A DNA stretch of 64,000 bases from assembly GCA_012295275.1 (NCBI GenBank), contig CM022672.1, forward strand, positions 15,686,001-15,750,000, given 5' to 3'. The position numbers were made by a program, and so were the translations under genes. Of this stretch, positions 349-57,160 are shown piece after piece. Under the pieces are notes generated by a model. The model did not search any database. It was not told the DNA's origin and was given only the letters and a program-made list of their open reading frames with translations. This DNA comes from Chrysomallon squamiferum. Taxonomy: Eukaryota; Animalia; Mollusca. Numbering within the stretch: the first letter of the stretch is position 1; each line of letters opens with the position of its first letter.

Positions 349-1071
349 TTAATTTGAGCTAACATTTTCTTCATTTTTACGACCTGTTTCATTTTTCTCG
401 GAATCACTTGTTACATCCGACGCAGAAGAAGATAGGTTCGGTTCACATCCAGAATAATGTTTCTTCCAGTCAAAATGACTTTCAAATGCTTCCCCACAGT
501 TTTCACATTTGTATGGCTTAATTTTATAATGACCATTCATGTGCTCCTGGAGATGTTCTGTTTTCCAAAATGTCTGTCCACAGTTCGGCTCCTGACATCG
601 GTATCTTGGTAACGTCTCGTCTTCTTGGCGTCGTTTTTGTGATTCCGACTGTTCGGACTGCACTTGTTTGCCCTCTGCTGCCTTCACAGACGATTTCATC
701 CTGTTGACCGTGTTTGGATTTACCTGTTGAGGAGGAGAAGGGGGAGAGGAAGGAGTCAGTGAACAGCTGGAATAAACATTCTGATTATTGAGAACCTGGT
801 AGTACGGATATCCAATGTTCTGGTCATCTTTCATTTCTCCATGTTTCAGTCGCATGTGTCGAGTCAAGTTGGACTTCCACTTGCTGACGTATCCACATTT
901 ATCACAGGAAAATGTCTGACTCAGTGGCGACAACGTCCGCATTAAGGACATAGATGGCGCTGTTTGTATTCGTATCAGATTCTCCTGCTGGGCTTTGAAC
1001 ATTCTCTGTATGCTGCTGAAAGTTTCGTTTCTGCTGTTATCTGTATTCTTATCTGTATGTCTTTCCCTTTC
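349..1071 (-). CDS. Gene A alternative terminal exon A2: zinc-finger cassette (C2H2, then C2H2 + C2HC pair), 240 aa
   Basis: Acceptor tttctctgtag|GAA at 1071, phase 0, in frame with ORF 349..1002 (ERERHTDK...QRMFKAQ). Fingers CDKC..HMRLKH, CQEPNC..HMNGH and CENC..HYSGC. TAA stop at 351..349. Confidence 0.82.
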   Translation of the reverse strand, partial: ERERHTDKNTDNSRNETFSSIQRMFKAQQENLIRIQTAPSMSLMRTLSPLSQTFSCDKCGYVSKWKSNLTRHMRLKHGEMKDDQNIGYPYYQVLNNQNVYSSCSLTPSSPPSPPQQVNPNTVNRMKSSVKAAEGKQVQSEQSESQKRRQEDETLPRYRCQEPNCGQTFWKTEHLQEHMNGHYKIKPYKCENCGEAFESHFDWKKHYSGCEPNLSSSASDVTSDSEKNETGRKNEENVSSN

Positions 1072-1736: not shown

Positions 1737-2429
1737 CTAGTCGATCAAGTTTTGTATCCAAAGCTGGTCTCCGCTGTCATTTTTCTGAATTGTGACATTT
1801 CCGCTAACGTTTTTGGGTGCGTTGTGAGCACACTTTTTTTTGTGCCTCTCGAGTCCAGAACGCCACGAAAATACAGCACCACACATACACCGATAAGACC
1901 TGTTTATATGCTTTGAGTTTATGTGGTCCAGTAACATGGAGTTACAAGTGTATGATTTATCACACATATCACAGGAATAATTTTTGGGCACGCGATTGGC
2001 TTGAGGTAGCTTTGACAGAGGTAGCTTTGACAGACTTTCTTTTATGAATGACGTTTCACACACCTTTTCCCAGTCCGTTTCGGATATATTTTTGAAATCA
2101 TTGTTGTGTGCTGATTTCATGTGATTAATCAGCTCGGCCATTTGGGAAAACGTATCGTTGCAGTCAGTGCAGTTAATACTGAAATTCTCGTTGTTCGGAG
2201 CCGAAACATCCATCGATAAAGTTAGAACGCTGCTGCACTTAGAACAAAGATTTCCATACGGCTCCTTCTGCACTAGCGCCTGTCTCGGAAATATCTGACC
2301 GCAGTAAGAACATTTAGACTGTGCCAGTGATGCGGTTTGCTGCTGGTCACTCTTATCCCAACCCCACTGACCATCGTGGACCACACGGGTTCTTTCTCTC
2401 GTAGAACGACTTCCAGCCGAAATGTCAAT
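1737..2429 (-). CDS. Gene A alternative terminal exon A1: zinc-finger cassette, 230 aa
   Basis: Branch point CACTAAC, pyrimidine tract cttttcttcttcccag|ATT at 2429, phase 0, in frame with ORF 1737..2474. Fingers CTDC..HMKSAH, CDMC..HINSKH and CMC..HKKKC. TAG stop. Confidence 0.85.
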   Translation of the reverse strand: MDISAGSRSTRERTRVVHDGQWGWDKSDQQQTASLAQSKCSYCGQIFPRQALVQKEPYGNLCSKCSSVLTLSMDVSAPNNENFSINCTDCNDTFSQMAELINHMKSAHNNDFKNISETDWEKVCETSFIKESLSKLPLSKLPQANRVPKNYSCDMCDKSYTCNSMLLDHINSKHINRSYRCMCGAVFSWRSGLERHKKKCAHNAPKNVSGNVTIQKNDSGDQLWIQNLID

Positions 2430-3153: not shown

Positions 3154-3437
3154 CTGCATTTGCCTTGACATCAATGCTGACCTTTCCGTACATTCTCGGG
3201 AATCTCCGTGACTGTTTCCTCGTGATGACGTAAGGCTGTCATTCCCGGCATTTCTTTCGGTGTTCTCAAACTGATCTTCTGGCAGGTCGTCTTCAGGGTT
3301 GTCGATCACCATATATGGAACATCATTTTCCTGCTTAATGGACACTGTAAGCGGCATGCGAATACTTTCTTTTTCCACCGAGTCCTGAGTGGCAGAGACT
3401 TCGTTTTCGACTGAGGCATTTGATGTGTTAAGTTTGT
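3154..3437 (-). CDS. Gene A constant coding exon 2 (low-complexity linker with IKQE motif)
   Basis: ttttcag|AC acceptor at 3437 (phase 1), in frame with ORF 3115..3378. Donor ATGCAG|gtctgt after 3154 (phase 0). Motif ESIRMPLTVSIKQEND matches gene B ETIRLPLNVKVKEEND. Confidence 0.8.
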
Positions 3438-3805: not shown

Positions 3806-4328
3806 CTCGTTTATGTGGAGTTGTGGCATCTGCAATGGAACCGGTTCGTTTCAGAGACTTCGCCTCAGAATGCTGTACATTATGACTTCTACTGGAACCG
3901 AGATTAGTATCAAACAAGGTTGAATTTGAAGATGCGTACTGACGATCGCCAGCGTTCAGAAAGGACTGTTTTGAAACAAATGAATCAGTTTGTCCTCGCT
4001 GATGAATCGTACTCGATGGTGGTTCCTTCTGTCCCCGAAACGATCGATCACGAGGACTGATGTTTTCAACACCTCTGTACCCTGCTGATACTGCGGGACC
4101 TTTTCGGACTGTTTTGAATGCTTTGGTGCAGTAACTTTCACTGATGACGTCTCCTGAACTCTGGACCAGTTCACTAAGGACGTAGCGCTCCTTTTTGCTG
4201 TTATCTATCTCCAAACAAAGATATCCACTAAGTTCTACAGCCTGTTCAAAATTGAGATAATCACGACATAGTTTCTGTACAGAGTCAATGAAACAGGCGA
4301 AAAATTCCACAGAATACTGTTTTTCCAT
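3806..4328 (-). CDS. Gene A constant coding exon 1 (conserved uncharacterised ~76-aa N-terminal domain plus linker)
   Basis: ATG at 4328 just after a ttttttcag acceptor (exon start ~4333). Donor CGAG|gtaat after 3806 (phase 1). 55/76 residues identical to the gene B N-terminus by hand alignment. Confidence 0.88.
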
Positions 4329-4923
4329 ACTGACTGAAAAAAAAGGAATAAAAAAGGTGGGGGTAAATAATAATATCTGTAATAGTAATAATGTTTATAT
4401 ATGTGCTTAATTGTGCTGCACCAAATGTTTTTATCTCTACAATACACAAGATTTTGATACTGATTATTAATATAATATCAGTCAGTCACATTTTTTTTTG
4501 TCATTTTTAAAAAAACTTTTTATACTTTATTTTCAGTTCTTTCCTTTTTATTATTATTACTAATTTTTAAAAATTTTTTTTAAATTACCATCTGCTGCCA
4601 TTGAGAAAAATCAAAATATACGATAAACGACTTTTTATCGATCGTAATGTACATAACATATCACATCACACATACAAATCTGCTAAAACGGAATATCGAA
4701 TCATAGCGTAATAGTTTAATATTATTAGGATGTCAACCCTCTACCCATAAAAGAAATAAAAAGTAGAACAAACACCACTGAAGAAAAATCTCAATTAAAA
4801 AACAATAATAATAATAAAAAAAATAAAAATGGCCACTTACTAATTAAACAATTTAAACCAATATTAATTTGCATGGACGCTAATAAAACAGAAAGTCGAC
4901 CTCCATAATGGCTAAAATCAACA

Positions 4924-11200: not shown

Positions 11201-13393
11201 ACCACAAGCAAATTCATAATTTTTGTATTTCAGAACACAAATTTAATTTCTGCATAATATAAAAAAAATGGAAATGCAATCAGAATAGCAAACTCATTTT
11301 TAATAGCCTAAATAATATATTTTAAGAAAGATTTAATGGTCTAGCAGTGATATAATATGTTAACAAATATGAAAATGCGTTAAATTGTAAATGGATTATA
11401 AAGTCACATTTTTTCTGTACACATCTTTGTGTGCATGCAGTTTGTACTAAGTAAATTTTGGAACTAAAAAACATCTTTATTATTGTAATGATACTCTTAC
11501 TGAGGACAGAAAAAAGCACCATCATTATATATGCAACATGATCTTAGGGTAATTGACATAAAATTTCTCTTACAAATATTTAACGAGATAGTACATACCA
11601 CATTAAGACCTGCAACCAATATTGAGAAACCTACCACATTAGAAACATCCAGTTAGAGAAAAAAGCTCTGTTTTCTGACAACACATCTTGCAGTTCCTTC
11701 CTGTGCCCACATGCTACATTCTTCAACAATGTTGTCAGAGATTCGTGATCCATTTTTGGAGTTTTCAGTTTTGACAGTGTATTTTCTGAAGTCTGTACAG
11801 CACCAGAGTGTAAATCAAAGTAATCTTCTGCATTGGTTGACTAAAAGATGATAATAAAATAAGCAATATGTAAATATTGTTTTCATTTAAAATGGTGATT
11901 TACAGAACCTCTTTGATCCACCATCACCACATTTAATGTGATATTTTTAATTACTGGCCTAATGCTATGTTTTCTTTTACAATACTTTAACATCTGTAAT
12001 TCAATAATAAAGGTAAGAGTAAATCAATAAAAATATGAAATTACATGTATATTATTATACTAATATTTAACAAAGAAAGCAGTATTTAAGTGTGAAACCA
12101 TTTAGAAAGTAGCAAAGAAGAATTGTGACTACAGAAACTTTGTCACTGCCCTTAGGCAGAGATAAAATCAAAACATTATCATTTTAGTTGACTTATGTGT
12201 TGATTATGTTTTGGGGAGGAGAAGCTGAATTTTTTTTTAAAATGCTGTGTCATGATGTATTAATCATAAACTAACATGTTCAAAGTCTTTAGCTGGTTTT
12301 CTTCTTGTTGGTGGTGTGTCACAAGCTTCATCACTGTCTGAGCTGAGTGAATCTTCACTCTCAGAAACACCATCATCATCTGACAAACATTTATATACAT
12401 CATCATCTGACAAACATTTATATACATCATCATCTGTCAAACTTTTACATACATCATCATCTGTCAAACGTTTATATAGATCATCATCTGCCAAACTTTT
12501 ATATACATCATCATCTGACAAACATTTATATACATCATCATCTGCCAAATATTTATATACATCATCATCTGCCAAACATTTATATATATCATCATCTGAC
12601 AAACTTTTATATAGATCATCATCTTATTTACAAACATTTTAAATCACAATAATATGTAAATAACTTTATTTTGGTATATTTTGTACTAATACACTGTTGA
12701 TTCTCAACAAAAAAATTATTATTTTTTTTTTTTAATAAAAAGCTTTTTCCATCAATTTTTGCATTACAACTTGAAATGAAATTAATAATACACACACACA
12801 TATATATTATTTACCAAATATAAAGACACATTATTATTATAACAGGTTTTGGGGTTTTAAAAAAAAACCTATCTCATGTGCAAAGTAAACCAAATCAAAC
12901 CTGACATGTTTCTTTTTCGTAAGCGGTAAGGTGTTGTGGTTTCAGGTTTTCTTTGTGATTTCCTTACAGGACTTATCTCCCTTTGCTCTTTTGCAGTCTT
13001 CTCCGATTCTAAAATACAATAAAACAAATGAAATAACCAATGAACATTTTTTTGTTGTTTTAACACATTTCAAGTATCCCTATAAACAATTATTAGATGT
13101 AGTTTTTGGTTCAACATTAGATTAACTGAACAGACAACTATTTCTATTTCTCATTATTTAACTGAATAGATTATTTATATCTATCTTTAGTACAGTGAAT
13201 CTGCTTGGACAGTAGATTACTTAACAGATTCTGCTAATAGCACTGTATTCTGCTAGTTTGCACTCTGTACTGTATTTGAGATATAATAATCAAAAATATA
13301 TATATATTTTTTTTTCATTACATAGAAAAAGGGTAAGAAAATATATAGAAATTTATTGCTAAATATCTGAATAACAAGCTCGAGATTCTATTC

Positions 13394-13424
<31 letters not shown>

Positions 13425-16400
13425 AGCAATATGAAAGTGGGTAAGCAACACAGTATCTAACTCTTTGATCTATAGTGAAACCTCTCCCATTAGGACTGTC
13501 ACCTAACTGGAATATCCTCACAACCAAATAATTCCTGTAGTTCCATGATTTATCAGGTACTAAAATCTCTTACTCGGTCACAACTCTATTTGGTTGTGAA
13601 AAGTTTCCTGTGAAATCTATGAGCATTTTGTTGAAAAATGTTCAGAAATTCTGTTACATATTCACTGGTTTGCATGTACCTAGATGAATAAATATGTCTG
13701 ATAACAATAAATTGAAGTTTACCTTTGGCTGTCTTATTAACTTTAGATTTCTTTGAAGATGATGATGTTCCTCTTGAAGATAATCTGTTTGGAGACCTGC
13801 ATTCTTCAGCTAATGTTTGAAAAAAAAAAAGTACCCATGTGAAATTATGTTAACGTGATATTTCTCAAAACTATTTTAAAGAGTACCTATAGCTATATGG
13901 ATAAATGGTTTGATAAAATAACATTTAAGTATCATACTTCCAAGTTATACTGCTTAGGATGACTTTTCATCACTCCTAACAAAGTATGACAGTAAAATGA
14001 TACTGCTATAAAAGATGTAAATGCAGCCACATTTGAGGCAGGCTGATAGCTGTATTTTTCTGACGAACTTTACAGCAAACTTTGTACCTAATGACATCTG
14101 AAATGGAAGCACCCAGATATTTTTTATATTGTAATCTTTCGTTGTTATCTTCCTTATTAATTAGAATTAGAAAGACAAAAAAAAGACACAAAAGAACCTA
14201 ACCTTAAAACATCTTGACAGTATGCAGAATAGGTTTCAGACTATTCCTTTCTAATATCATATGTAGATTTTAATGATCTGAAGAATAATTGCTTTTCTTC
14301 CCCCCTTTTTAATATACAGAACTTCTAATATTAATGAATTTAAAATTAGATGGTATTTTGTTTTTCATCAGAATTACAATCTATGAGGTTCAAAGATAAA
14401 CACTGAAATGCTTAGTATTTACCAATAAGCACAATAAAATAATATGCAAATGATAAATTTATTTCTCCATTTTGTTGTAAAACAAAGTGTTAGACCTAGT
14501 TTTTACCTTTGCTCTAATAATAACTTGTCCACTTTAAATATTTTACAGCATTTACAATTATAAAGATAATTTATTTTCTACTTAGAAATACAAAAGGTGA
14601 ATCAGGTCAACATCAAATGTAATTACATTTATAAAGGAATAACTAAAAATGCTGGTGCAGAATTTCAGTAGGTGTAAAGATACATGATGCTAATTCATTT
14701 AACAAATTAAGGTCACCAGAACAGCTATATATACCACAGATGAAACAAAACTTCCAGAAAAATGTTTGTACTTAAATAACAAAAGCATGAAATTGATGAA
14801 TAATTGATAAAATGTGGAAAGATGTCTTATTTTGGGGTTTTTTAAGGCAGCAACAATAAAACATAAATTGTACACTGAGATGTTTCAGGTAAGCTTGGTT
14901 ACGGACTACTCTATTATATCAATTTATAACTTATAACAATAAGAGAATGCTTACCTTTCAAAGCCATTAATCCAGATTTCTTTGGGGTTTTGAACTGGAA
15001 AACATTACATCCTAGTACAGCATTGTCAACCAAACTTCCGACATCCAGAACTGAAACAAAAACTAAATAATGAATAAGAATTTAAACGTAGCATTACCAG
15101 GCACCAGTTTAATTAAAATGGAAATATTTAAAAAACGGGATTTTTCCAATGACTTTTGGTTCAAATTAAATGAAAACAAAAAAATATCAGAACTAAAATG
15201 AAAAATTTATACTGAAAACATAACAGCAATAAGAAATGAATCCATGTTAAGATGTATAACTGGCAAGTTACTTGACGGATTACTTGCCTATATTGATGGT
15301 GTCACAGGCTACATACACAAATCAACTGTGCAAAGGCGTGTGAAAGCAGGTAGCCTTCACAACTATGCAAAAAACTTAAAAAGAAATTTTCACAAAACAG
15401 TTCAGACTCTCAAATTCAGCTTCTGATAGTGTGAAAGTAAATCGTAATGTTACATGTTTTAATTCCATTGGAAAATTTGAAAAAACCCCAGTAAAGAACA
15501 ATATAAGAATCATTGCAATACAGCATTGTGGTTGGTTATGCAGGAGAGACCTATGTCTGACTACCAGTCCCTGATTGCCTTACAGAAGAATGGGGTGCAG
15601 TTTATAAGTGGGAAGGACAATGACCACTCATGTAGGGACTTTGTTCACAATTCTGCCCAAGCAATGAGAGATGATATCAAACAGATGATACAATGTGCCA
15701 ACTTTATGTCAGTTGAACAAGATGGCAGAGAAGCTTGCAAAGTTAAGGACGAAAAAGAATGAATTTATGTGAAGATTATAGCAAGGGGCCAGCCTGTTGA
15801 ACTATTATTTAAATGTCAAAAAATGAGCAATTTCAGTGGAGTAATTGCATAGAGTGTCAAACCTGCTATAGATGATGCTTTCCATGATTATGACTTTACT
15901 GGTGAAAAGAACACATAATGTTTTATTTGTGCTTGTGCAGATGGAGAAAATGTTAATGTTGGTAAACTGAATGGTGCTCTAACTGTAATGAAAACTGAAG
16001 GCAGGGAATGGTTGCTAATAAATCATTGCTCTGCACACAGAATTGAACTGGCTGTCAAAGATGCATTAGTTGAAATTGGTGACTTTGTAAAAGTGGATGA
16101 CATGATGCTGAATCTGTTTATGTTTTTCAAGACTAGTGACATGTGTTGGAAAATATTGCTACTTATTGCAGAACAGTTAGGGGTTCTAGTACAACATATA
16201 CTGAAAGCTTCTGGTACACGATTTCAAATTCATAACTATAGAGCCATCAAATCTATGATCATAAACTTTTTGTTTCTATGTTTACTTGCAGAAAATATGA
16301 TACAGGCTTCAAGCAAAGTTTGCGAAAGGCTAAACTAATGGAGTACCTCAACACATGACTGACTTACGGGTATCTGGCATATATGCATCTTTACAGACTC

Positions 16401-19400
16401 ACTCTGAAACAAACTGCCCATTTGTCAGAATGCAACTCCATTAGATGAATTCAATACACTTGCTGCTGTTGATAGTGATCTGCCATTTCCAGTTCCTCTC
16501 AGCAAAGATGGTCTCGAGGCAACCAACCTTACAGCAAGTGTAAGATTCAAACAAGACAATCAGCTGAGTAACAAGCAAAAACAACAAGCTGAAAAAGTTG
16601 TTACTACAATAAAAGAAAAGTTTGTTCTCAACAATGTTCACCAGCAAAAAAAGACTGTGAAACATATAAGAACAAAACTGATCCCAGCAATTTTAACACA
16701 GCTGATTAAATGACTGGATTCTTTCAATGACCCTATCTTCAAGGCAATGAAAATAGCTGATCACATTCATTGGGATATATCTGATCTAAAATATGGCTTG
16801 GAACAAATTAAACTGTTATCTAAACATTTTGCTAAAAGCCTAGCTTACCACAACTTTGCCCTAGATATGGCTATTGCTTGATACAATGAGAACAGTGATA
16901 TGGATAAATAACAAATATTATACTGTTCACCATGCATATGAGAATTGGAGGATTCTTGTAAAAAACCCAAAGTTTTAACATTGAAATACTCCAGGTTCTT
17001 GAAAACAATAAGCTAGACAGACTTTCAGAAGCTCAACATCTATCAGTAGTGTCATCCAAGTTGTTTTACAATGGATACCATTTCACTGTGACATACCTGG
17101 AAATCAGAATGAAGACAGACTGGCAAAACTAGGTGCAGGTAATGAACAGGAAGATAACTGGGTGTCATATGAAGAATTGAAATCACATATTAAATCTCTC
17201 TATAGACTTACCAAATGAACCGATGACTATCACCTATGAACAAGTTACCATTTTCCAATTAAGGACTGGACATAACAGGCTCAACCAGCAATATGCATTA
17301 GAGATTTTGTATGGTATCTTCTTTTATGCAGTGTAAAATTTCGTCATCCAAGGGCCCATTAACATCTTGCCTAACAGGCCTAACACCTGCATTTCAACCT
17401 GCCCTGTTACTGACACAAAAATATTTCTTGAACAATGCACGATGCTGAGTATATATGCCACATATGTGAAACAGAACATGAAGACCATTACCCGAGGCAG
17501 GTTGTGATCATCAAGAAAAGTCTTGAACCCCTGGGGATCGCCCTTATTATCATTAAAGCGGAGTTTGTTCATCTATACAATGATGTTTGAAGCACAGCAA
17601 TCATTTCCCTTTGCACCTCCTTCATATTCCTTGAGTGCTGATCTAGCTTTTGTGGCTATGGAGTCCAAAGTGTGCAAATGACAGTTTAACTCGTTTAAAG
17701 TCTTGGCCCAGGAAACATTCACTAGCTGTATTGCAGCATGGTTTGCTGCACACCGATCAGTAAGACTGTTGGTTATGTTTGAAATTAATCCCTGGCATAT
17801 GGTTTGATAGTCTTAATCAAAGAAATGACAGTACACTATGGCAACGTTATCAACTGAATCACAGATAGTGATAGTCATTGGCTGTACCTTCAGGTAACTG
17901 ATCGGCAGCAACAACATAGCAATCAGCATGGGTGGTGATGTGTATGCTGTTTAAATGAATGCCATCTTGTGTCGTGACATCGAAGTCAGTTTATGAGTCG
18001 TTGTTTAAAATAGCTTCTGCAGTTTAAAGATCACTTATTGCCCCAAGTTCTCTTATTATTGCTTCTACTGTGGTCTTGTGTGGAACAACAGTTATGGTTG
18101 TTCCAGAGCGAATGGCAAACTTTCTAATCAGAGATGGTATATTGTTCATTGGTACTTGAACAACAATAGCATTGAAAACTTTCATTCTCATTTCAGGAGA
18201 ATAAGTCCTTCCATCAGATTTGGTTTGTTTAACAAAACCCTCCAGCTCTTTTACCCAGTCTTTTAGCTTTAGCTTGTCATCCTGGAGCTGGAGGATTTCC
18301 TCCTCCCTTTCTGCCAGTTTCGTTTCCAATGCTTCCACTCTTTCATCATCAGTCTGGGATGCAGTTTAATGCAGTTTTTATTTTATCGTATTTCTTAATT
18401 CACTGGTGTTTCTTTTTTAAAGTGGATATAATTTTTGTAGCTTTTCAGATCTTTGTCAAGAGCAGAAGAGTCCAACTGCAATTTTACTTTAGACAACTGC
18501 ACTTCTTTTCTCTTGATTTTTTTATTTAGTCTCTTTACTGATTCATACCTTCTCTGTTTGCGCTTGGCCATCATATTCCTTACCTTAATCCAGTTCTGAC
18601 ATTTTAAGAGATCCTGCTTGGATTGGGGGATATTCTTTTGCACTTCAAGCTAGGCTCCTGTCAGATTTCAATATAAATTCACATATAGCAAAATAAAATG
18701 TTGTTCTACCTTAGATTTTCCTCCGATATCGAAATTGACCAATTTTAACATGTTGAATACGAGAACATTTTTCGAACTGTCCTCTGAAACAAACCAATTG
18801 ACCGAACTGAAAAATTGGAAAATGAGTGAGTATACGGGAGTTTCCCACTAATTATACCATCAGGGATAACCGAAACTCCCAGCCCCTGACCAATGAGAAG
18901 CAATTTATGCAAAGACACCACTCGCCATTGGGAGACCCAGGTCACATGGATATAGCACAAAATGGCGGACGCAGTTCAGGCAGTAATACACATACCTACA
19001 GTTTAAAAATAGCATTGTCATAAATGTATGAACAATCCAGACATCTTCTGATGGTACAATACATCATGAGCAACACATTTACGACTAGTCTAACTATTTC
19101 TCAACTTTCCTAAATTTTGAATAACTAAACCAGTGGATCAATGGGGGTGCAAAATATCTATCTGCAACATCTACTCAATAAAAGCATGCAACTGAAACTT
19201 CTTTTAATATTATATTATTTTTATTATCTCTAAAATAAACTGCCTACAACAAACATTATTTTAAGTCCCACAGCGTGCCCAGTTTTAAAGAACAATCCAG
19301 ATACCTTCTGATGGTCCAATCACGTGATCTTCATCACTGCTGTCATCAACCACGTCAGTTTTTTTAGACCTGATTGCCTGTGTAGAGTAAGTAATCTTTT

Positions 19401-20087: not shown

Positions 20088-21536
20088 GTTTTATGAAAAG
20101 CTCTTATTTGAAGAAGATATATAAAACCATACGGAAAACAATTACGGTTTCAGCTAAAACTCGGAATGTAATTTGAAACAATCCGTTGAAGGATAAAAAA
20201 AGCGAAATTAAATATTTGTAAATATAGTATTTTGTCTATTCCTTCTCGGCCGAGGTTTAACTCATATTCTTTTCTTGTTTTGTTACTATTATTTTTTTTT
20301 TTTTTAAAAAAAAAAAGGATGTAATATTCTGACATTAAAAAAAAAATTGACTTTCAAGAGAAAAATACTTTCATATATTTCTGTTGTAAAGTTTTTGTAT
20401 AACGTGAGGAAAAATCTGTCAGAAGTACTGTCATTACTTATTTTATAAAGTATAAATTGGTTTTCTTAAATTTTTTTTCTTAATACACTTTCTAGCTGCT
20501 AGAGCGATTGGTAGCGTTTCTCAGCTCATCATCAAGATAACCTGCAGTATTTTTAAAAAAATTATTTGTTTTTATTGCATTTCTGTTTTTAAAACTGTTT
20601 GAGGGTTTAAGGAAAATCATTAATTAATCTGTATTTAAGCATGAGATACCAGAATATATTTGTTATTGGCACAATCTTATCTGGACCCCAAGATACAGAT
20701 ATTTATTATGGTTCTTTACTTGATTTCTTCAGTTGTATGGACTGATTTGCTGTTCATCAGGTCTGTCCCAACCCATCTTGCAAAGACACCATGAAATTTG
20801 AAACAAGACTGGGCAAACAGAAGAGATGGGAAGACAATATCAGATTTGGAAAAAATGACACCCTATTTTTAATTTTTGTTTTGTATAGTTGCTTTGATAA
20901 AAAAAAAAAAAATTAAAAGTACTTTTGAAAATACGGTTTATTCATGCAATATTGTTACATAGATATATATTAACATATAGCATCACTCAATCACTTGGTT
21001 TTGCTTAACAAAGTACAGTATTATATCAGAGTTTAGTATTACACATATACACATACATACACACACATATACGTACATACATACATATATATGCACACAC
21101 ACAGAGTCAATTCAAACATAGCACAAGATACATATGTGTGTGTGTGAGTATATATATATATATATTGCGCAAGGACTTTAAGTCTAAACAAAGTGAAAGG
21201 AACCTGAGATACATTCATGGTGTTTAAGTATCTTTACATTATGCTTGATGATTTTTTATCAGTCCATTACAATAAGGTAATCAATTAAGTGCTGCTTACG
21301 AAAACAATTCGTAATTGAACCTGTGACTTCCCACTGAGCAGTTCTGTTACAAGCAGATATATTTCTTATAAATACCAGTGAAAATATCACTAACTTTCAT
21401 TAGAAAATTCTCCTGTCCCTGAACCCATCCCTGGCGATCCCAGAGATCGGATCCGAGATAGGCGTGCCTGAACCTTGAATTGGATGTGGGCACGTAAAAA
21501 GAGTTTCCATACCATACCATTAGAAAACTGTTCACG

Positions 21537-21850
21537 ATGGAAGTCATAACTAGCAACAAAGGTGGTCAACAGTTAATATTCAATGGTTTCATATACACGA
21601 AACAGATAACTAAGCCTCATAACATAAGGTGGCGATGTGTACAACGCACTACTGACTGTAAGGCAACCCTAACCACAACCTTGGTTATTGATGATCAAAA
21701 GTTAATTGCAGCTCATAACCATGATCCATCGGAAACAAAAGTGGCAGATGTCAAGTGCTGTTCTCAGATGAAGAGCAAGCCAAGAAAAGTTTCGACAAGC
21801 CAAGCCAGACAGTAACTGAAGCCATGAGTCAAACTGAAGGAATTGCCAGG
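21537..21850 (+). mobile_element. MULE/Mutator-like transposase 5' remnant with FLYWCH zinc finger
   Basis: MEVITSNKGGQQLIFNGFIYTK...RWRCVQR..CKATL....HNHD fits the FLYWCH pattern. The frame shifts and truncates shortly after. Confidence 0.78.
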
Positions 21851-31009: not shown

Positions 31010-31973
31010 TCTGAACTTTCCAAAGGATTGGCCTTTATATAAGTGGTTGACAGTAGGCCAAATTTATGGCATTGTAACATGACTGAATATCAGTGGTATG
31101 TCTAACGAATGCTCAGTGGCCGAGGATTGAGTTTTTCCATGCGTCTTAATAAATGACAGTAAAAGGAAGAGGTTTCAGCAAAACGTTGTCAATATTAATT
31201 AAATGTACTGAGTTACCATTAAACAAATATTCACTCACAACTTCACAAAAAGAATTTTTTTTTTTTTAAACTGTATTGTATACATAATTGTGATTATTTT
31301 TAAAGTTCACTGGCAACTGTTTTAGCTATTCAGATATTTTAAAATTAATCTTTTTCTTTTTTCTTGTCTTTCGTAAACTGATAAGTTATTTTGTCGTATA
31401 AAAAATGTTAACTATAAATTTTATATCATATTTATATTCAGTAGTTACTGAATTCTGATCTGCTTTAAACTGATTGTTATAAGCTCGAGGTATTTGCAAC
31501 GAATCTGACAAACTAAGCTAATAATGAACTGTCCTTTCCATTTATTATATATTGTTACCTATATGTTCTGCACAACTGATAATATAATTAGGACTATTAG
31601 AAAACAAATCTTTTCTAAAATTAATTGTTTTATTAAGCGATTTTTTAATTGAATGGCGCCCCCAGTTTTCTAAGAGATACATTTTATTTAATCATAGTGC
31701 ATCTGCCTACGGGCGCCACTAAGTTTTTGTATTTTACTGCATAATCTATCCTCGATATGGGAAAGTAAACAAATTGCAAAGACATATGTAGTCGTCTTCC
31801 AAGTCGAAAGTCGAATACATGTAAAGACGAAAACTATATTTAGTCAAAACTAATTCAACTTCGAGGCAAAAGATTAAGTCTACATCAGAAAGATATTGAT
31901 TTAAAAAGAGCATTTTGCTGAAACAGAAACGCATTTTTACTTTTACACAAGTAAGTCAAAGGGGTGAAAAAGC
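31010..31973. repeat. Left arm of a ~950-bp inverted duplication
   Basis: Reverse complement of 34817..35757 along its whole length apart from scattered substitutions and a few short indels. Confidence 0.93.
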
Positions 31974-34816: not shown

Positions 34817-35757
34817 GCTTTTTCACCCCTTTGACTTACTTATGTAAAAGTAAAAATACGTTTCTGTTTCAGCAAAATGCTCTTTTTAAATCAATATCTT
34901 TCTGATGTAGACTTAATCTTTTGAAGTTGAATCAGTTTTGACGAAATATAGTTTTCGTCTTTACATATGGAAGACGACTACATATGTCTTTGCAATTTGT
35001 TTACTTTCCCATATCGAGGATAGATTATGCAGTAAAATAGAAAAACTTAGTGGCGCCCGTAGGCAGATGCACTATGATTAAATAAAATGTATCTCTTAGA
35101 AAACTGGGGGCGCCATTCTCTTCAAAAATCGCTTAATAAAACAATTAATTTTAGAAAAGATTTGTTTTCTAATAGTCCTAATTATATTATCAGTTGTGCA
35201 GAACATACGGGTAACAATATATAATAAATGGAAAGGACAGTTCATTATTAGCTTAGTTTGTCAGATTCGTTGCAAATACCTCGAGCTTATAACAATCAGT
35301 TTAAAGCAGATCAGAATTCAGTAACTACTGAATATAAATATGGTATAAATGCTGCTATGATTTATCCGTAAAATAACTTATCAGTTTACGAAAGAAAGAA
35401 AGAAAGAAAAAGATTAATTTAAAAATATTTGAATAGCTAAAACAGTTGCCAGTGAACTTTAAAAATAATCATAATTATGTATACAATATAGTTTAAAAAA
35501 AAAAAAAATTCTTTCTTTTTGTGAAGTTGTGAGTGAACATTTGTTTAATGGTAACTCAGTACATTTAATTAATATTGACAACGTTTTCCTGAAACCTCCT
35601 CCTTTTACTGTCATTTATTAAGACGCATGGAAAAACTCAATCCTCGGCCACTGAGCATTCGTTAGACATACCACTGATATTCAGTCATGTTACAATGCCA
35701 TAAATTTGGCCTACTGTCAACCACTTATATAAAGGCCAATCCTTTGGAAAGTACAGA
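34817..35757. repeat. Right arm of the inverted duplication; contains the likely gene B core promoter
   Basis: Matches 31010..31973 in reverse. TATATAAA at 35726..35733. Confidence 0.93.
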
Positions 35758-36025: not shown

Positions 36026-36786
36026 CAGGCTCTAACATTGGAATGCGTAAATAGAGGCCCCATTTAGGTGGATAGCGTAAATAAAATACAGATACCTATT
36101 TGACATTTGTTTTTAAACCTAATTATTGTTTAATCAGTAATACAATTATATTTTACCATAACGACGTACATATGCAAACGCATTCATTAAATTAAATATA
36201 ATAATTAATCAAAATTTAAATTTATGAAACCATGGAAATGCTTTGTATTCTAGTATTTGTATTTTGTATTTGAAAAGGACATTTTGAAACAGATTTCTCT
36301 ATTTATTTTTATCATCTAATTTAAACAATTTATGAATTTTAATGTTTTATACATCTGTTGTATGTTGTTGTTCCGAGATCACAACCTGTGGCATTAAAAA
36401 AAGCACATTACAGTTGGTTAGTTTGTTTACGTAACAGTGTTATTCACTTAAGGTAATGAGTAATTATACATCTGAGAAATATTTCCCCACAATCTGTGCA
36501 ACTTACAAATAATCCTACCCCTATCACTAACTTCATCACAACCCAAACCATAACTAATCACAGGTATAACCAAAAGAAAACCCTAACTCTAACCATAATC
36601 CTAACCCTGATATTGTTCTCTAAAATTTAAATCATAACTCTCACCCTATATCTGAAGTTGCTATTATGATTATGCTGTTGTATGTTCAAAATGTTAAAAC
36701 ATTTGTGCATGATATGTTATCTTTATTCGATTTATAATAATAAATGATATTAAGTATGGATTATTGTATTTCTGTTTCAGGAGACA

Positions 36787-37255
36787 ATGGACAAACAATA
36801 TTCTGTGAAATTTTTTGCCTCCCTCATAGAAAGTATACAGAAAGTGTGCAGAGATTATCTTGACTTTGAACAGGCAGTAGACATCAGTGGCTACCTGTGT
36901 GTTGAGATAGACAGCTATCGGAAAGAGAGATATGTTCTTAGTGAACTTATTCAAAACACAGGAGACATTGTCAGTGAAAGCTACTGCACGAAAGCTTTTA
37001 AAACATTGAAAAAGTTTCCCAGTGATGTTGGAGGAATTGAAAACAGTGAACTCACACGGTTGTCAGCATCAGCAGAGACCTCAAACATCAGCAGGATAAA
37101 CTCGCGTAGATGTGAATCTTCCAGCAGAACATCTGGATACAATACAAGCAACACAGAGTCTGGTTTCTGTACTAATCAAAGGAATCCTTATAAGTTGTTA
37201 CCACCAGGCCTAAAAAGAACGATACCGTGGCAGAATCGGTCATCACCAAAAAGAG
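36787..37255 (+). CDS. Gene B constant coding exon 1 (conserved uncharacterised N-terminal domain plus linker)
   Basis: ORF 36787... Acceptor at 36780. Donor AAGAG|gtatat after 37255 (phase 1), at the same KR-G position as in gene A. Confidence 0.88.
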
Positions 37256-37545: not shown

Positions 37546-37976
37546 AGAGAAATGAATCATACAGAATCAGCCAGGAAAATAGTGAAGACTATTCCAATGT
37601 TCATCATTCCGGCAGCAATAATTATTTACCCGAGCCAGCTTCTGACAGTATTGTGCTACCTGTAAATACACTGGATAACACCAGTTCATCAGCATCAGTT
37701 GCAGAAAACAGTACTTGTAACACTGTTCCCAGTGTGAATGAAACTATTCGCTTACCTCTCAATGTCAAAGTTAAAGAAGAGAATGATAGTTCTTTTATGG
37801 ATGAGCAGGGTTATGAAAATACTAGGATGTACAGTGATAAAAATTCACAAAATTCATATATTCATGCACAGACTGAAAACAACGAAACATTGCCAACGTC
37901 ATCATCATTATCGCCAGGGGACCAAGAAAATGCTCACACTGCCAGAAAGATGAAAGGTCATGTGAAACTGTTTCAG
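37546..37976 (+). CDS. Gene B constant coding exon 2 (S/N/E-rich linker, VKEE motif)
   Basis: Acceptor tttatttcag|AG (phase 1), open and in frame with ORF 37653... Donor TTTCAG|gtaatt after 37976 (phase 0). The constant region totals 300 aa. Confidence 0.85.
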
Positions 37977-41213: not shown

Positions 41214-41714
41214 GTCACCACAGATTCCCAGATGATTTCTTCAGACTCACATACACCACCACCACCTTCAGGTATTACACCCCAGGGCTCTCAGGTAATA
41301 CAACAGATGATGCTGAGCAGTGAAGGAGAGACAGTTGTCAGTAAAACGAGAAGTTGTTTCGAATGCCAGAAATGTTTTTATACATTTAGAGACTTGGCCC
41401 GGTACAAAGAACATCTGCAGATATATCATCCAGAAATCTTTTACTGCGAAATCTGTGGCAGGAGTTTTGATGATGAGCAGTGTTTTTCAGACCACATCTG
41501 TGTTGTGAACCATGAAGGAAAGAGAAAGTTTCCTTGTCCTTACGGAGCTTGTTGCAGAAGCTTTGCCAGACAATCTCATTTGATGGACCATGTGAACACT
41601 CATTCAGGCCTCAAACCATATATTTGTCCCAACTGCCATAAGCATTTCACAGGAAAGTATATTTTTAACCGCCATTCGAAGACTTGTTGCAAGAAAGAGG
41701 AGAATAATGAATAA
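41214..41714 (+). CDS. Gene B alternative terminal exon B1: four zinc fingers, 166 aa
   Basis: Branch TACTGAC plus ttctcccatgcag|GTC, phase 0. Fingers CQKC..HLQIYH, CEIC..H, CPYGAC..HVNTH-SGLKPY and CPNC..HSKTC. TAA stop. Confidence 0.85.
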   Translation, partial: VTTDSQMISSDSHTPPPPSGITPQGSQVIQQMMLSSEGETVVSKTRSCFECQKCFYTFRDLARYKEHLQIYHPEIFYCEICGRSFDDEQCFSDHICVVNHEGKRKFPCPYGACCRSFARQSHLMDHVNTHSGLKPYICPNCHKHFTGKYIFNRHSKTCCKKEENNE

Positions 41715-43739: not shown

Positions 43740-44192
43740 GTATCTTTGGAGCCCCAAAAGTCACCTTCGTCAGAAACCTTACCAAACTGCAACAAACTTG
43801 CAAGTCCCTTGCCCAACATTGGCAGCACAACTGAAGAACAAAGAGGTTGTTTTCAGTGCAAGAAATGTGTGTCTGTTTTCAAATACAGGCAGGAACGTAA
43901 AGAACACATGGAAATGTGCCATCAGGAGACTTGTTACTGTAACATTTGTGGCCGACAGTACAAGTACAAACGGTCACTGTGGGAACACACACTGATCCAC
44001 CAGGGAAAGAAAAAATTCATTTGTCCTTACAAAGACTGCGGAAGAAGGTTTGCCAGAAGGGTTCACATGGTGGATCATTTGAACACCCACTCGGGCGTAA
44101 AGCCTTACGTGTGTCAACAGTGCACTAAACAATTTGGAAACAAATACACTTTGCTGAAACATGTAAAAGTGTGCGAAGGGAGAATAAACTGA
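43740..44192 (+). CDS. Gene B alternative terminal exon B2: four zinc fingers, 150 aa
   Basis: ccttctcccatgcag|GTA, phase 0. Fingers CKKC..HMEMCH, CNIC..HTLIH, CPYKDC..HLNTH-SGVKPY and CQQC..HVKVC. TGA stop. Confidence 0.85.
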   Translation, partial: VSLEPQKSPSSETLPNCNKLASPLPNIGSTTEEQRGCFQCKKCVSVFKYRQERKEHMEMCHQETCYCNICGRQYKYKRSLWEHTLIHQGKKKFICPYKDCGRRFARRVHMVDHLNTHSGVKPYVCQQCTKQFGNKYTLLKHVKVCEGRIN

Positions 44193-44983: not shown

Positions 44984-45154
44984 GTTTCAAAAGGCCGAAG
45001 CCACTTTCGCAGGATGTATTCCCGCTCGGCCCTGCATTATGCCTGTTTGGCCATCAGGGACGAAGGGATTTCCATTCGAGCAGCTGGACGCAGGTTCAAT
45101 GTTCCTGAAGCTACTCTGCGATATTATCGAAAAAGACAGAAACATGATAGCTGA
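44984..45154 (+). CDS. Gene B alternative terminal exon B3: pipsqueak-type helix-turn-helix, 56 aa
   Basis: ttttcttttggtttcgcag|GTT, phase 0. YSRSALHYACLAIRDEGISIRAAGRRFNVPEATLRYY fits the psq/CENP-B N-terminal HTH pattern. GC-rich island in AT-rich DNA. TGA stop. Confidence 0.82.
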   Translation, partial: VSKGRSHFRRMYSRSALHYACLAIRDEGISIRAAGRRFNVPEATLRYYRKRQKHDS

Positions 45155-47095: not shown

Positions 47096-47323
47096 AACCT
47101 TGGCTTGAGAGAGAAGATGAGAAAGCCCAAGCGAGACAGAGCTGCATACATGAGGATGTACAGATGGCGAATTCGACAGAAACAAATGAAACAAAGTGAC
47201 TGTTTGTGTGAAAGTCAGAGTTTCCCAGTGAACGAGGATGTTCTGTACACAGATTTACAACAAGTCAGTCAGGACAGTTTGCATGCAGACATTGTGTGGG
47301 TCAATGTAGAAAAAAAATCTTGA
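47096..47323 (+). CDS. Gene B alternative terminal exon B4: basic helix, 75 aa
   Basis: ctcccattatttgtag|AAC, phase 0, in frame with ORF 47105..47323 (KPKRDRAAYMRMYRWRIRQKQ). Confidence 0.62.
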   Translation, partial: NLGLREKMRKPKRDRAAYMRMYRWRIRQKQMKQSDCLCESQSFPVNEDVLYTDLQQVSQDSLHADIVWVNVEKKS

Positions 47324-49929: not shown

Positions 49930-50220
49930 GAATTCCTGCATTCCAAAAAAGAATTTCGACCAATGCTAGAGATCCCACCAGGTGAGCTGGATCCATTACT
50001 AGGATTGTTTTTTCTCAGCCTTCAGAAGGAAAATGGTAAAGAATATGAGCCGTACTACCTGAAAAACATTTGTTCCATACTTGGCCGTTACTTTCGCCTC
50101 AATAATTACAAACCAAGTCTGAAAAGTGAAGCTTTCTCACGATCTCGTCAAATTCTGCAAGCCAAAGTGAATCGTCTTATACAAATAAGAAGAGCTGAGA
50201 CACTGGAGAGAAAGCAGTAG
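49930..50220 (+). CDS. Gene B alternative terminal exon B5: Crypton/DUF3504-type (ZMYM/QRICH1/KIAA1958-like) N-terminal helical region, 96 aa
   Basis: tttatttcag|GAA, phase 0. EIPPGELDPLLGLFFLSLQKENGKEYEP..LK....LGRYF....F..SRQILQAK resembles the conserved ELD.LL..FF..VRK.DG.EYEP.SL block. No catalytic recombinase half follows. TAG stop. Confidence 0.8.
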   Translation, partial: EFLHSKKEFRPMLEIPPGELDPLLGLFFLSLQKENGKEYEPYYLKNICSILGRYFRLNNYKPSLKSEAFSRSRQILQAKVNRLIQIRRAETLERKQ

Positions 50221-53884: not shown

Positions 53885-55767
53885 TTAATCTGGAAATATG
53901 ATTTTGATAAGGTTTCTTTTCTGACATATATAGTGACAGTAATAGTGATGTAAATGTGTGACAGGTTTTGTATAAAGCTTGTTTGATTTGTGTTAGTATA
54001 AATGGAAGATTTCAGGGGAGGCAATGATGAATAAAAAATTAGGCAAAATAGTAACATAATTAGGAATAAGAGAGATTTTGTTTTTTCATCAAAGTAAAAT
54101 AAGAATGAAATTTAAATTACTTCATTGTGATACTTTGGCAACTGTCGGTCAATGGTTTGGTTGAAATTATGGTTCTGAATACATAATTATGTATCACATA
54201 ACAAATGGCTTTCTGGGGATTTCTTTAAGTGATACTTCAAAGGGAAAGAAACAAAAGAAAATATATATATACCATGGTGTTGTTACTTAAGTTTGATTTA
54301 TTTCCAGTCATCTTTCTGACATGAAATTCTGTCAGCTAATAGTGATAAAAATATTCAATTAAAAATAAAATATACCTACCCAAAGAAAAAATGTAAGTAA
54401 ATAAAAATAAATTAACAAAAAATTATTTAGAAGAAGAAGAAGAAGAAATGAAAGAAAAATTCATTAAATAAATAAAATAGTAAATTGATAATTACAGATG
54501 GATTGGCTAACTCAACATAATTTGGACTGTTTGAAATTTAAATTACCCAATTATCAGATTGTTTGGTTGGAGACCAGTGTTACCAAGAAAACTGTTCTTC
54601 TGAGAAAATAAGCATGTATCCAATAATTAACACAGGCATAAATAATTAAAATGTTCATTTTTATTCATCCAGAATAAGAGATTTTTTTGTGGGGGTTTTT
54701 GTGTTAGTCGTTTTTTCATCATAGTAAAATAAAAGTTTGTAATTTAAATTACCTCATCTTTTATTTTCGGTGATAGGCCAATACTATCCAGGTAATTTTC
54801 ATTCTGAAAATATAATTATATATATATGTGTGTGTGTGTTTGATTTTTCTCTTTGGGAAATACAAGACTTTAATCTTTACCCTGATTTCAGTGATAAAAC
54901 ACATTCAAGGCTGTCAGTCAAACAGTTCCAAAGATGTGAATTTAATTTGTAGGGGCCATTTGCAGGGGACATTTTGAAGAAATATAAATTAAAGGCCAAT
55001 TCTGAAGATGAGATTGTCTCTGACAAAGCTTAGTTCATAATGTTATGCGTTGGAAATATTCAGTTTAACTTTTTTCACAACTCTGCAATGTATATTTACA
55101 TTAATATAAAAAGCCAAAGCTGGCAAAATCATACATTTGCACTAGAAAAAAAAAAAAAAAAAAAAGCTTATAAAATTTGTAACTTCAGAGCTGTCCTACA
55201 AATATAGATTTCATTCCAAATTAATCAGAGTGAAAAGATCAAGACAATGAAGGGATAAATTAGAAAATCTGAAACGTTAATTTTTAGAGGGTTCATCTTT
55301 TATCTTTTGACAAATTGCAGTTTTCTTCACAATCTCTTAGTGCTAGTGAAGACTGTATAAAAATAAAAATGATGTGTTGAGTGCCCTTTCCTCCTGAGAG
55401 AGGGGCTCAGAGCAGTCTTCAAAGAGTATGTTGAGGACACACGGACAAAAATCAGGGTGGGATTTACCTACTTGCAGGCCAAACTCTAATCAATGGGCCA
55501 CCAAATTTATAGAAATGTTGTATCCAATACTATATATATATATATATTTTTAACTGTAATTTTTTTTATTGAAATGGCCAAATGTCAACAAATGCTACAT
55601 AATACTATAATGTAAATAATATGAATCATTACTTTTAATCAGTTTTATATCATGGACATCTTATATATGGGAATATAGATTCACTGGCATGTACATATGT
55701 TTCTGAATACATTTTAATGGGAAACCGTTTTAATGTGGCAGTCGATTTTATGAGACAAATATCCACC

Positions 55768-57160
55768 AAAGAGTAGATTAAATAATGAAGTTTGTACTGA
55801 GTGACCTATATAATTATTTAGTATATATGTAGTATGTTTTGAACCAAGTTTCAAATACAACAAGCTTATTTTTTTTACAGCTAACACTAACTGAACACAT
55901 TTATTCCAGCATCAGAACAAGTATTATTGCCACAAAGCAGAAGAATAAAATAAAAAGCTAAATACTTCTGAATAAACAATCACAGCATCAAATGAGAAAC
56001 TGATCTGAAATAAATTAAGGTCTCCAACACACAGTCTGTAATGAACAGTGTGAAGAGGTGATGTGCCTAAATAAGTTTGACATCTGTTAACTAAGGTGGA
56101 GGTACAGTCAGACAATGTTGAATGTATATGAAAAGAATGATCATTTTGCTGACAAAAAAAATGATATATAAATGTAAAATATAGTGTATCAACGTGTTTA
56201 GCGATACACGTTTGTAGAAATATAGCTAGGTGCGGCTTCCCAATTCTGACTGAAATTAAATGTTCCCTCCCTGTACGAGGTCAAATTTGTGCAATAAACA
56301 CAAAAATAAGACTTCAGATTTTCTTTTTTAGCAGTTTTTATTCAGAGAAAACCTCAAACAGAAAATAAATCAGAATTCAATAAAAAACAACAAAAAAAAC
56401 AACAACAATAGGTCAAAACAGTATGGCGGACCAAAAAATAAAAGCACTTTTGAGTATACATAACCACATAGAGACACACACACACACACATCATAGTGTT
56501 GCTGCACAAGTTTCAATTCATTTCAGTGAAATGGAACTTTAATCCTTGTCAACTAGTAGTAAAACTAATTTAAATATTAATAACAAATTCCCTTGGCAAA
56601 AGTAAAGAAAGAAAGAAAGAATAAATAAATAAATAAATTGATAGTTACAAATAGTTTAGCTATTTCGAGATATTTATCTTCTGATCGAAATTCTGTCAGA
56701 ATGTCTTCCAATAATGACCAGCTGGTGCTTCCTTCCATTTTCTTTTTTTTTTTTTTTTTTTTGCTTGTGGTGGAGGATTAAGTGCAGCGCAGAACTATCT
56801 GTAATTATCAAATACAAAACTCTTAGAGTTATAATTATTATTTCAAGCATTAAATGATAAATAGGTAATAATTATTTAAACCCTATATGTCAAAAATAAT
56901 TTATAAATTATTTGTTTTATAATTCTTAAGCAAGAACGAAATTCAATGTTTATGTCTCATATTAGATAACAATTACCTCCCTAACTACTTAAAACGCTGT
57001 TCACTTAGAAAATAATTGTTTTCATAAAATTAAAATTTTATACTTACTAGACAAGCTTTAAAAATTATAAAATAATTTGTAGTTATGGACATTACGTCAC
57101 GACAATTACCTTTTTGAAAAACCATGTTACTTTCGGCTATAATCGGAACTAATCGGAGGC
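55768..57160. repeat. Diverged direct copy of blocks from 32200..34620
   Basis: Shared anchors: gtactgagtgaccta (~33627/~55795), acagtcagacaat (~34010/~56104), tacgaggtcaaatt (~34475/~56274), ttactttcggct..aatcggaact (~32948/~57127). Confidence 0.75.

Follow-up and report, generated by a model that had tools for sequence, protein, structure and literature searches.

The analysed sequence, a 64-kb stretch of the Chrysomallon squamiferum genome called the window below, carries two paralogous genes, A and B, which lie 32 kb apart and are transcribed divergently. Each gene begins with the same type of N-terminal domain, encoded as follows:

36787..37014, plus strand: N-terminal domain of gene B (translated; folded core approximately residues 1-72)
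4101..4328, minus strand: N-terminal domain of the paralogous gene A (translated; tblastn match to the gene B domain)

Exons of ORC2 (9126-11840, minus strand; PF04084, E 2e-22 and 9e-5) are present between the two genes. Positions 12264-12650, just upstream of the ORC2 exons found, are occupied by a tandem repeat whose unit measures about 27 bases and in which several frames are open. Broken frames which look transposase-like by eye, with no convincing Pfam match, were seen at 15568-16713 (plus strand) and 18024-18365 (minus strand). Just upstream of gene B, an inverted repeat of about 970 bases (31010-31973 / 34817-35757, 93% identical) possibly corresponds to DNA transposon ends; the sequence between its arms matches pieces at 54288-57156.

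Similarity and selection in the two copies

An initial annotation of the window had described the domain as a pair of copies. Both copies are real, in that the two stretches translate as annotated and 55 of 76 residues are identical in an ungapped alignment; the annotation had not seen that they belong to a large gastropod family. The match between them is unambiguous (tblastn E 9e-39, against E 2.9 for the next match), and no third copy was found by tblastn in the 64-kb window. Substitutions are, as had been claimed, mostly conservative: 18 of the 21 differences are BLOSUM62-positive. DNA identity at the first, second and third codon positions is 58/76, 69/76 and 40/76 respectively. The strong constraint proposed for the domain was also recovered, with a pN of 0.15 against a pS of about 0.75. 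Synonymous sites are saturated while pN is low, and A and B therefore derive from an old duplication under purifying selection.

Sequences beyond the domain had been reported as impossible to align. This goes too far: in the linkers of the first exon only 22/80 residues are identical between A and B, but in the second exon the paralogues have a short motif in common. The motif is located at 37680-37800 (plus strand) and 3289-3429 (minus strand) and includes a VKEE/IKQE-type site, which we take to be a SUMO consensus.

Conservation was also compared between species. Gene A and its Gigantopelta orthologue are identical at 74/76 positions in the domain, 42/97 in the linker, and 125/223 and 146/238 in the two tails. 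For gene B the corresponding values are 63/76 in the domain, 30/80 in the linker and 77/141 in exon 2. In the vent snail Gigantopelta aegis, the closest gene differs for the A and B copies, the B grouping being weakly supported in a tree of 48 chosen rows and 73 columns with many unresolved forks; these separate neighbours place the A/B split before the species split.

A gastropod domain family

A single-sequence search yielded 51 domain proteins from 79 candidates, including Gigantopelta and Haliotis proteins. With a profile of 20 close domains, 258 representatives were recovered at E<=1e-3 among 1.84 billion (at least 150 matches listed), and a wider domain profile gave 279 representatives, of which the best 120 were listed. 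When 30 domain representatives were looked up, all of the 17 named clusters were from gastropods. The family is named in at least 22 gastropod species, and genera with the domain include Lottia, Patella, Haliotis, Pomacea, Littorina, Aplysia, Biomphalaria and Lymnaea. Among the matches listed, which were obtained with profiles built from snail-type sequences, names from bivalves, cephalopods or annelids do not occur. Viral contigs were searched and gave no relatives, and a stand-alone short form of the domain having words in common with the query was not found. One hit (L003), a 21-residue chance match in bacterial-looking DNA, was rejected as a domain relative.

The domain is present as one copy in 315/315 fetched proteins, which had been picked by the domain search itself, and begins within the first 25 residues in 305 of them. 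In P0109, P0118 and P0132, proteins of 1600-1770 aa which include Lymnaea and Lottia members, it starts near residue 95-113; the very long Lottia member is called vertnin by one source. Three residues, G35, D42 and E53, are invariant in all 126 aligned rows, and F9, C21, F27 and E32 are nearly so (C21 in 123/126). The family is divided into two main subfamilies, which are about 30% identical and have a common hydrophobic pattern. Paralogues are clustered: at least nine Gigantopelta locus numbers share a record of 91.7 Mb, three loci of Haliotis rufescens one of 4.15 Mb, and four distinct family proteins one of 668 kb (records of equal length being counted as one).

A literature search, in which subscription journals were largely outside coverage, returned no description of this domain or of a mollusc cassette locus, and the domain is not discussed in the available part of the Gigantopelta genome paper (PMC7895826). 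We consider the domain family to be real and apparently undescribed.

Predicted fold and comparison with described domains

The 76-residue stretch is almost certainly a folded domain. The arrangement guessed in the initial annotation, a helix followed by strands, was borne out by two predicted models. In the gene B domain the model contains a helix at 7-24 and strands at 30-41, 45-56 and 62-68 (pLDDT 77, the last strand being weak). A relative from the other subfamily, modelled as a lone chain, contains the same elements with a pLDDT of 92.8 and a pTM of 0.76.

Profile searches gave no match to a described domain. For the two window domains, Pfam returned nothing above cut-off and no BTB family at E<=1; a PH_34 row at E 0.14, under its cut-off, was discarded. 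Among 25 diverse members, again none had a match above cut-off or to a BTB family at E<=1, and no Pfam family matched more than one member at E<=1. Weak NCBIfam rows of CobB type in 5/25 members (best E 0.0028) were read as chance. In 80 full-length relatives, Pfam matches at E<=1e-5 were present in 33, all of them beyond residue 270. PDB sequences gave 0 matches to the domain profile at E<=10.

Structural searches had a similar outcome: Foldseek of both models gave 0 PDB matches at E<=0.001, the viral structure library gave 0 matches to the domain model, and the ESM Atlas held no usable match for the window domain or for an Aplysia domain. In a VIA search of 48,161 chains the window model reached at best a Z of 3.9 and the relative a Z of 5.8, where 7-8 is the typical best Z of unmatched models. 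Neither novelty of the fold nor a lack of related structures can be concluded from these fold searches. The best structural row was the type II secretion minor pseudopilin GspI/XcpV (5bw0_B; Z 5.8, rmsd 2.8, 66 aligned residues), which resembles the relative's model in having a helix and then a three-stranded meander; at 8% identity and with a Z below 7-8, the likeness was taken for a common arrangement rather than for kinship.

The domain had been judged to be none of BTB, KRAB, SCAN or ZAD, and we agree on both profiles and predicted fold. A BTB/POZ core of some 100-120 aa is built of about five helices and a short sheet of three strands, compared with a single helix and three strands, in 72-76 aa, for both domain models, and no BTB was found among the structural matches listed. 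ZAD has two CxxC pairs which bind zinc. The snail domain has no zf-AD profile match and a single cysteine conserved across the family, C21, so that a ZAD zinc site is impossible. KRAB and SCAN folds are all-helical; neither profile matched, and the domain models are not all-helical.

Candidate last exons in the window

In gene A, two constant exons and two last exons were predicted:

3806..4333, minus strand: first coding exon (predicted; phase-1 donor as in gene B)
3154..3437, minus strand: second constant exon (predicted; ends in phase 0)
1737..2429, minus strand: last exon A1 (encodes C2H2 fingers; its Gigantopelta orthologue is the tail of isoform P0015)
349..1071, minus strand: last exon A2 (encodes C2H2 fingers; its Gigantopelta orthologue is the tail of isoform P0016)

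Both tails thus match separate Gigantopelta isoforms, starting at the same points. The exon phases, at predicted joints, are those of gene B, for which two constant exons and five candidate last exons were found:

36781..37255, plus strand: first coding exon, domain and linker (predicted; ATG at 36787, GT donor in phase 1)
37546..37976, plus strand: second constant exon (predicted; ends in phase 0, giving a constant part of 300 codons)
41214..41714, plus strand: candidate last exon B1 (encodes four fingers of C2H2 type; acceptor in phase 0)
43740..44192, plus strand: candidate last exon B2 (encodes four fingers of C2H2 type; acceptor in phase 0; B1 paralogue)
44984..45154, plus strand: candidate last exon B3 (encodes a Pipsqueak helix-turn-helix; PF05225 above cut-off at E 2.3e-6; acceptor in phase 0)
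47096..47323, plus strand: candidate last exon B4 (encodes a short segment rich in Arg/Lys, unmatched in Pfam; acceptor in phase 0)
49930..50220, plus strand: candidate last exon B5 (Crypton/ZMYM-type continuation; phase-0 acceptor; stops after 96 codons)

All seven candidate last exons of the two genes are downstream and on the sense strand. The first coding exon of gene B is colinear with its Gigantopelta orthologue P0004, which carries a DUF3504 tail (PF12012); this tail was looked for in the window and not found, and no Gigantopelta isoform among the fetched proteins matched B1-B5. B1 and B2 are identical at 60/150 positions. B4, the weakest candidate, resembles by eye the basic tails of the relatives P0204, P0212 and P0290. 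Near each acceptor there are also AG sites in other phases; at three of the five gene B acceptors, the best pyrimidine tract belongs to the phase-0 site.

Exon B5 is informative in another respect. The last 18 or so codons of exon 2 are similar to the start of a Crypton/ZMYM-type helical domain, and the exon end aligns to residues 375-408 of the relative P0084 (E 9e-5); B5 aligns to residues 410-494 of the same protein (46%, E 4e-19). B5 has no match to PF12012 or to any other Pfam family: it ends before the DUF3504 part and corresponds to the region just upstream of it in relatives. Abutting parts of P0084 are thus encoded on either side of a 12-kb interval which holds the four other candidate exons. 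Since a continuous Crypton-type domain is split by an exon-bearing interval, this constitutes independent evidence for a choice between last exons. It also suggests that the gene B cassette may have grown inside an intron of a Crypton-derived gene. Alternative last exons are very probably used in the window.

A FLYWCH domain, a type that the family uses as tail, is encoded at 21498-21815 (plus strand, E 1e-12). It has its own ATG, no open frame beyond, and no phase-0 acceptor in the scan; it is probably a decayed Mutator-type element.

Cassette layout in relatives

The idea that one head could be combined with different DNA-binding tails is annotated throughout the family in database gene models, which we take to be RNA-guided. 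In relatives a constant head of about 300 aa is joined to unrelated tails. We observed that 144/313 proteins fall into 35 groups with identical first residues over at least 240 positions, and that in 32 of the 35 groups at least two members have tails less than 50% identical. This count follows a crude rule: at least one group (P0144/P0147) corresponds to a shifted splice site and not to a separate exon. One Aplysia gene was seen with 18 tails and one Physella gene with 16, divergence occurring at residue 316-318, and database isoform numbers for the family run to X37. A contig of 1357 bases (L001) is intron-free and encodes head, linker and C2H2 tail within a single frame, which is what would be expected of a spliced transcript.

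The initial annotation had treated the genes as a zinc-finger family with a shared head. C2H2 tails are indeed present, but the tails are not only zinc fingers: we found C2H2, Psq, BEN, DUF3504, FLYWCH, CENP-B, Tc5, piggyBac-type finger and BED tails. For many members, the one tail known is of DUF3504 type. Several of these tail classes are described as transposon-derived in molluscs in the available text of a report (PMC10027918) in which the word 'isoform' is not used. Tails common to different heads were not found among 303 proteins, one pair being explained as alleles, and there is no sign of trans-splicing in the seven window exons or the 303 proteins.

In the Aplysia gene LOC101845285, the tails P0195, P0200-P0203, P0205-P0209 and P0218 combine a first finger of atypical form with a single C2H2 finger and a conserved end. 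This repeated type, of which P0195 is without a Pfam match, is possibly an unnamed DNA-binding module.

Proposed function

We favour, with somewhat more confidence than reserve, a reading in which a conserved domain heads a gastropod family, one head being likely spliced to several last exons and the domain likely oligomerising the resulting isoforms. At the predicted joints, the constant head would be spliced to one or another of the DNA-binding last exons. A self-association surface could be formed by the helix together with the two long strands, and through it isoforms with an end of one to four fingers, or with a Psq, BEN or FLYWCH end, would gain avidity as oligomers. Hetero-oligomers could mix specificities, in the manner of the Tramtrack-type BTB proteins of insects. 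Further ends might be gained by insertion or duplication of phase-0 terminal exons, many of them of transposon type, behind the constant exons.

Several observations point to such an oligomer role: the domain occurs as a single N-terminal copy, it is followed by a long variable linker, and the tail repertoire is TTK-like. Short tails (one to four fingers or one helix-turn-helix) would moreover gain from multivalency. The 12-residue hairpin has hydrophobic residues on both faces, with a hydrophobic fraction of 0.99/0.93/1.0 at positions 49/50/51 and of 0.5/0.74/0.46 at positions 34/36/38. Since the one helix of a monomer covers only one of these faces, the other may serve as a self-association surface. 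On these grounds, and by analogy, we consider it quite probable that the domain self-associates; for functional mixing of isoforms or paralogues we see the balance as even. In a mutual information analysis of 119 rows (effective number 59), hairpin pairs were not in the top 25, so that covariation is uninformative on oligomer contacts.

The alternative that survives best, although we think it unlikely, is a monomeric KRAB-like docking module which recruits one conserved cofactor and is aimed by the tails at different DNA sites. The confident lone-chain model of the relative makes a monomer possible, the invariant polar or charged positions E32, D42, K46, E53 and Q/R18 could form a partner surface, and the very slow evolution of the gene A domain (74/76) fits a fixed partner. 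A hydrophobic pattern kept at about 30% identity between subfamilies would, however, fit co-evolving self-contacts better. The two functions are not exclusive, as BTB domains both oligomerise and dock cofactors.

It is improbable, to a greater degree, that the domain is a diverged member of a described family or fold, perhaps one acquired along with a Crypton-type transposon protein, whose name lies outside the libraries searched. Such an origin would be in line with the many members that pair the domain with DUF3504, a domesticated Crypton recombinase according to the available text of PMC3212892, but the Pfam, PDB-sequence and viral-contig searches reported above all argue against it. Still less probable is direct contact of the domain with DNA, RNA or chromatin, as a constant element beside the variable tail. 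Helix-plus-sheet modules can bind nucleic acid, and K46 is conserved, as is a basic residue near position 57; the B domain is nevertheless about neutral (11 K/R, 12 D/E), the invariant residues are Gly and acidic, and some 230 poorly conserved, Ser/Thr-rich residues separate domain and tails. Finally, recent duplication or gene conversion, which the 32-kb spacing of A and B and the clustering of family members on shared contigs might have suggested as the source of their likeness, is refuted by the saturated pS (0.75, with pN 0.15) and by the separate Gigantopelta orthologues, which place the A/B split before that of the species.

Comparison with known systems

The favoured reading, a spliced and oligomerising head, was compared with three groups of known genes. 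ZAD, SCAN and KRAB families combine a small lineage-restricted N-terminal domain in one copy with a long variable linker and zinc fingers. The snail domain is likewise single, N-terminal and lineage-restricted, with a long poorly conserved linker and an expanded family, whereas its tails are short (one to four fingers) and interchangeable instead of forming long fixed arrays.

In the Drosophila genes lola and mod(mdg4), constant N-terminal exons are followed by many alternative 3' DNA-binding exons, 31 in the case of mod(mdg4), according to the available part of PMC13490949. TTK factors are described, in the available text of PMC11426971, as combining with C2H2, Psq/HTH and FLYWCH, their isoforms differing in the DNA-binding domain; TTK-type BTB domains form hexamers, pair widely with family members and are reported there only in arthropods. 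The isoform models of relatives and the exon anatomy of the window, with predicted joints, reproduce the layout of constant 5' exons and many alternative 3' exons. There are also differences: the snail head is not BTB but a domain of about 72 aa with a predicted helix and three strands; many clustered paralogues have the layout, and DUF3504 tails occur in it; and, where mod(mdg4)-type loci use trans-splicing and have some exons on the opposite strand, all candidate exons in the window are downstream and on the same strand, without sign of trans-splicing. As no TTK-type BTB profile matches, the snail genes would work like lola and mod(mdg4) without being members of that group. The family thus appears to vary the lola/mod(mdg4) design, with an oligomer function that we infer by analogy.

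The third comparison concerns DUF3504 proteins (ZMYM2-4, QRICH1, KCTD1 isoform b, KIAA1958, WOC), to which many snail members are similar in having a Crypton-derived C-terminal part. In KIAA1958, two isoforms each encode a DUF3504 domain, as given in the part of PMC3212892 available. Unlike in these proteins, the snail DUF3504 part is one of several tails that can follow a head without a name, and in gene B the start of the domain is split by an intron holding four other last exons.

A more ambitious reading can be offered tentatively. The genes might constitute a BTB-free lola/mod(mdg4) system which evolved independently in gastropods, with an undescribed multimerising domain and clustered paralogues, each having up to dozens of alternative, largely transposon-type DNA-binding last exons. 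Its hetero-oligomers would provide a combinatorial regulatory or insulator code, and gene B would show the origin of a cassette in an intron of a domesticated Crypton domain.

The combination of a single multimerising head with a range of spliced DNA-binding ends is known chiefly from the Tramtrack-type BTB genes of arthropods; if an unrelated domain were confirmed to be used in the same way across gastropods, the design would be convergent. Through such genes, DNA-binding domains of transposons (Psq, CENP-B, FLYWCH, BED, Crypton) could be taken up as plug-in exons and become host factors, and the 72-residue domain is a target for structure determination. The proposal, if true, would also give a name to many uncharacterised regulators in model or medically relevant snails such as Aplysia, Biomphalaria and Lymnaea. 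Database labels for these proteins at present read 'ZBTB-like' or 'KRAB and SCAN-like', neither of which describes the head correctly.
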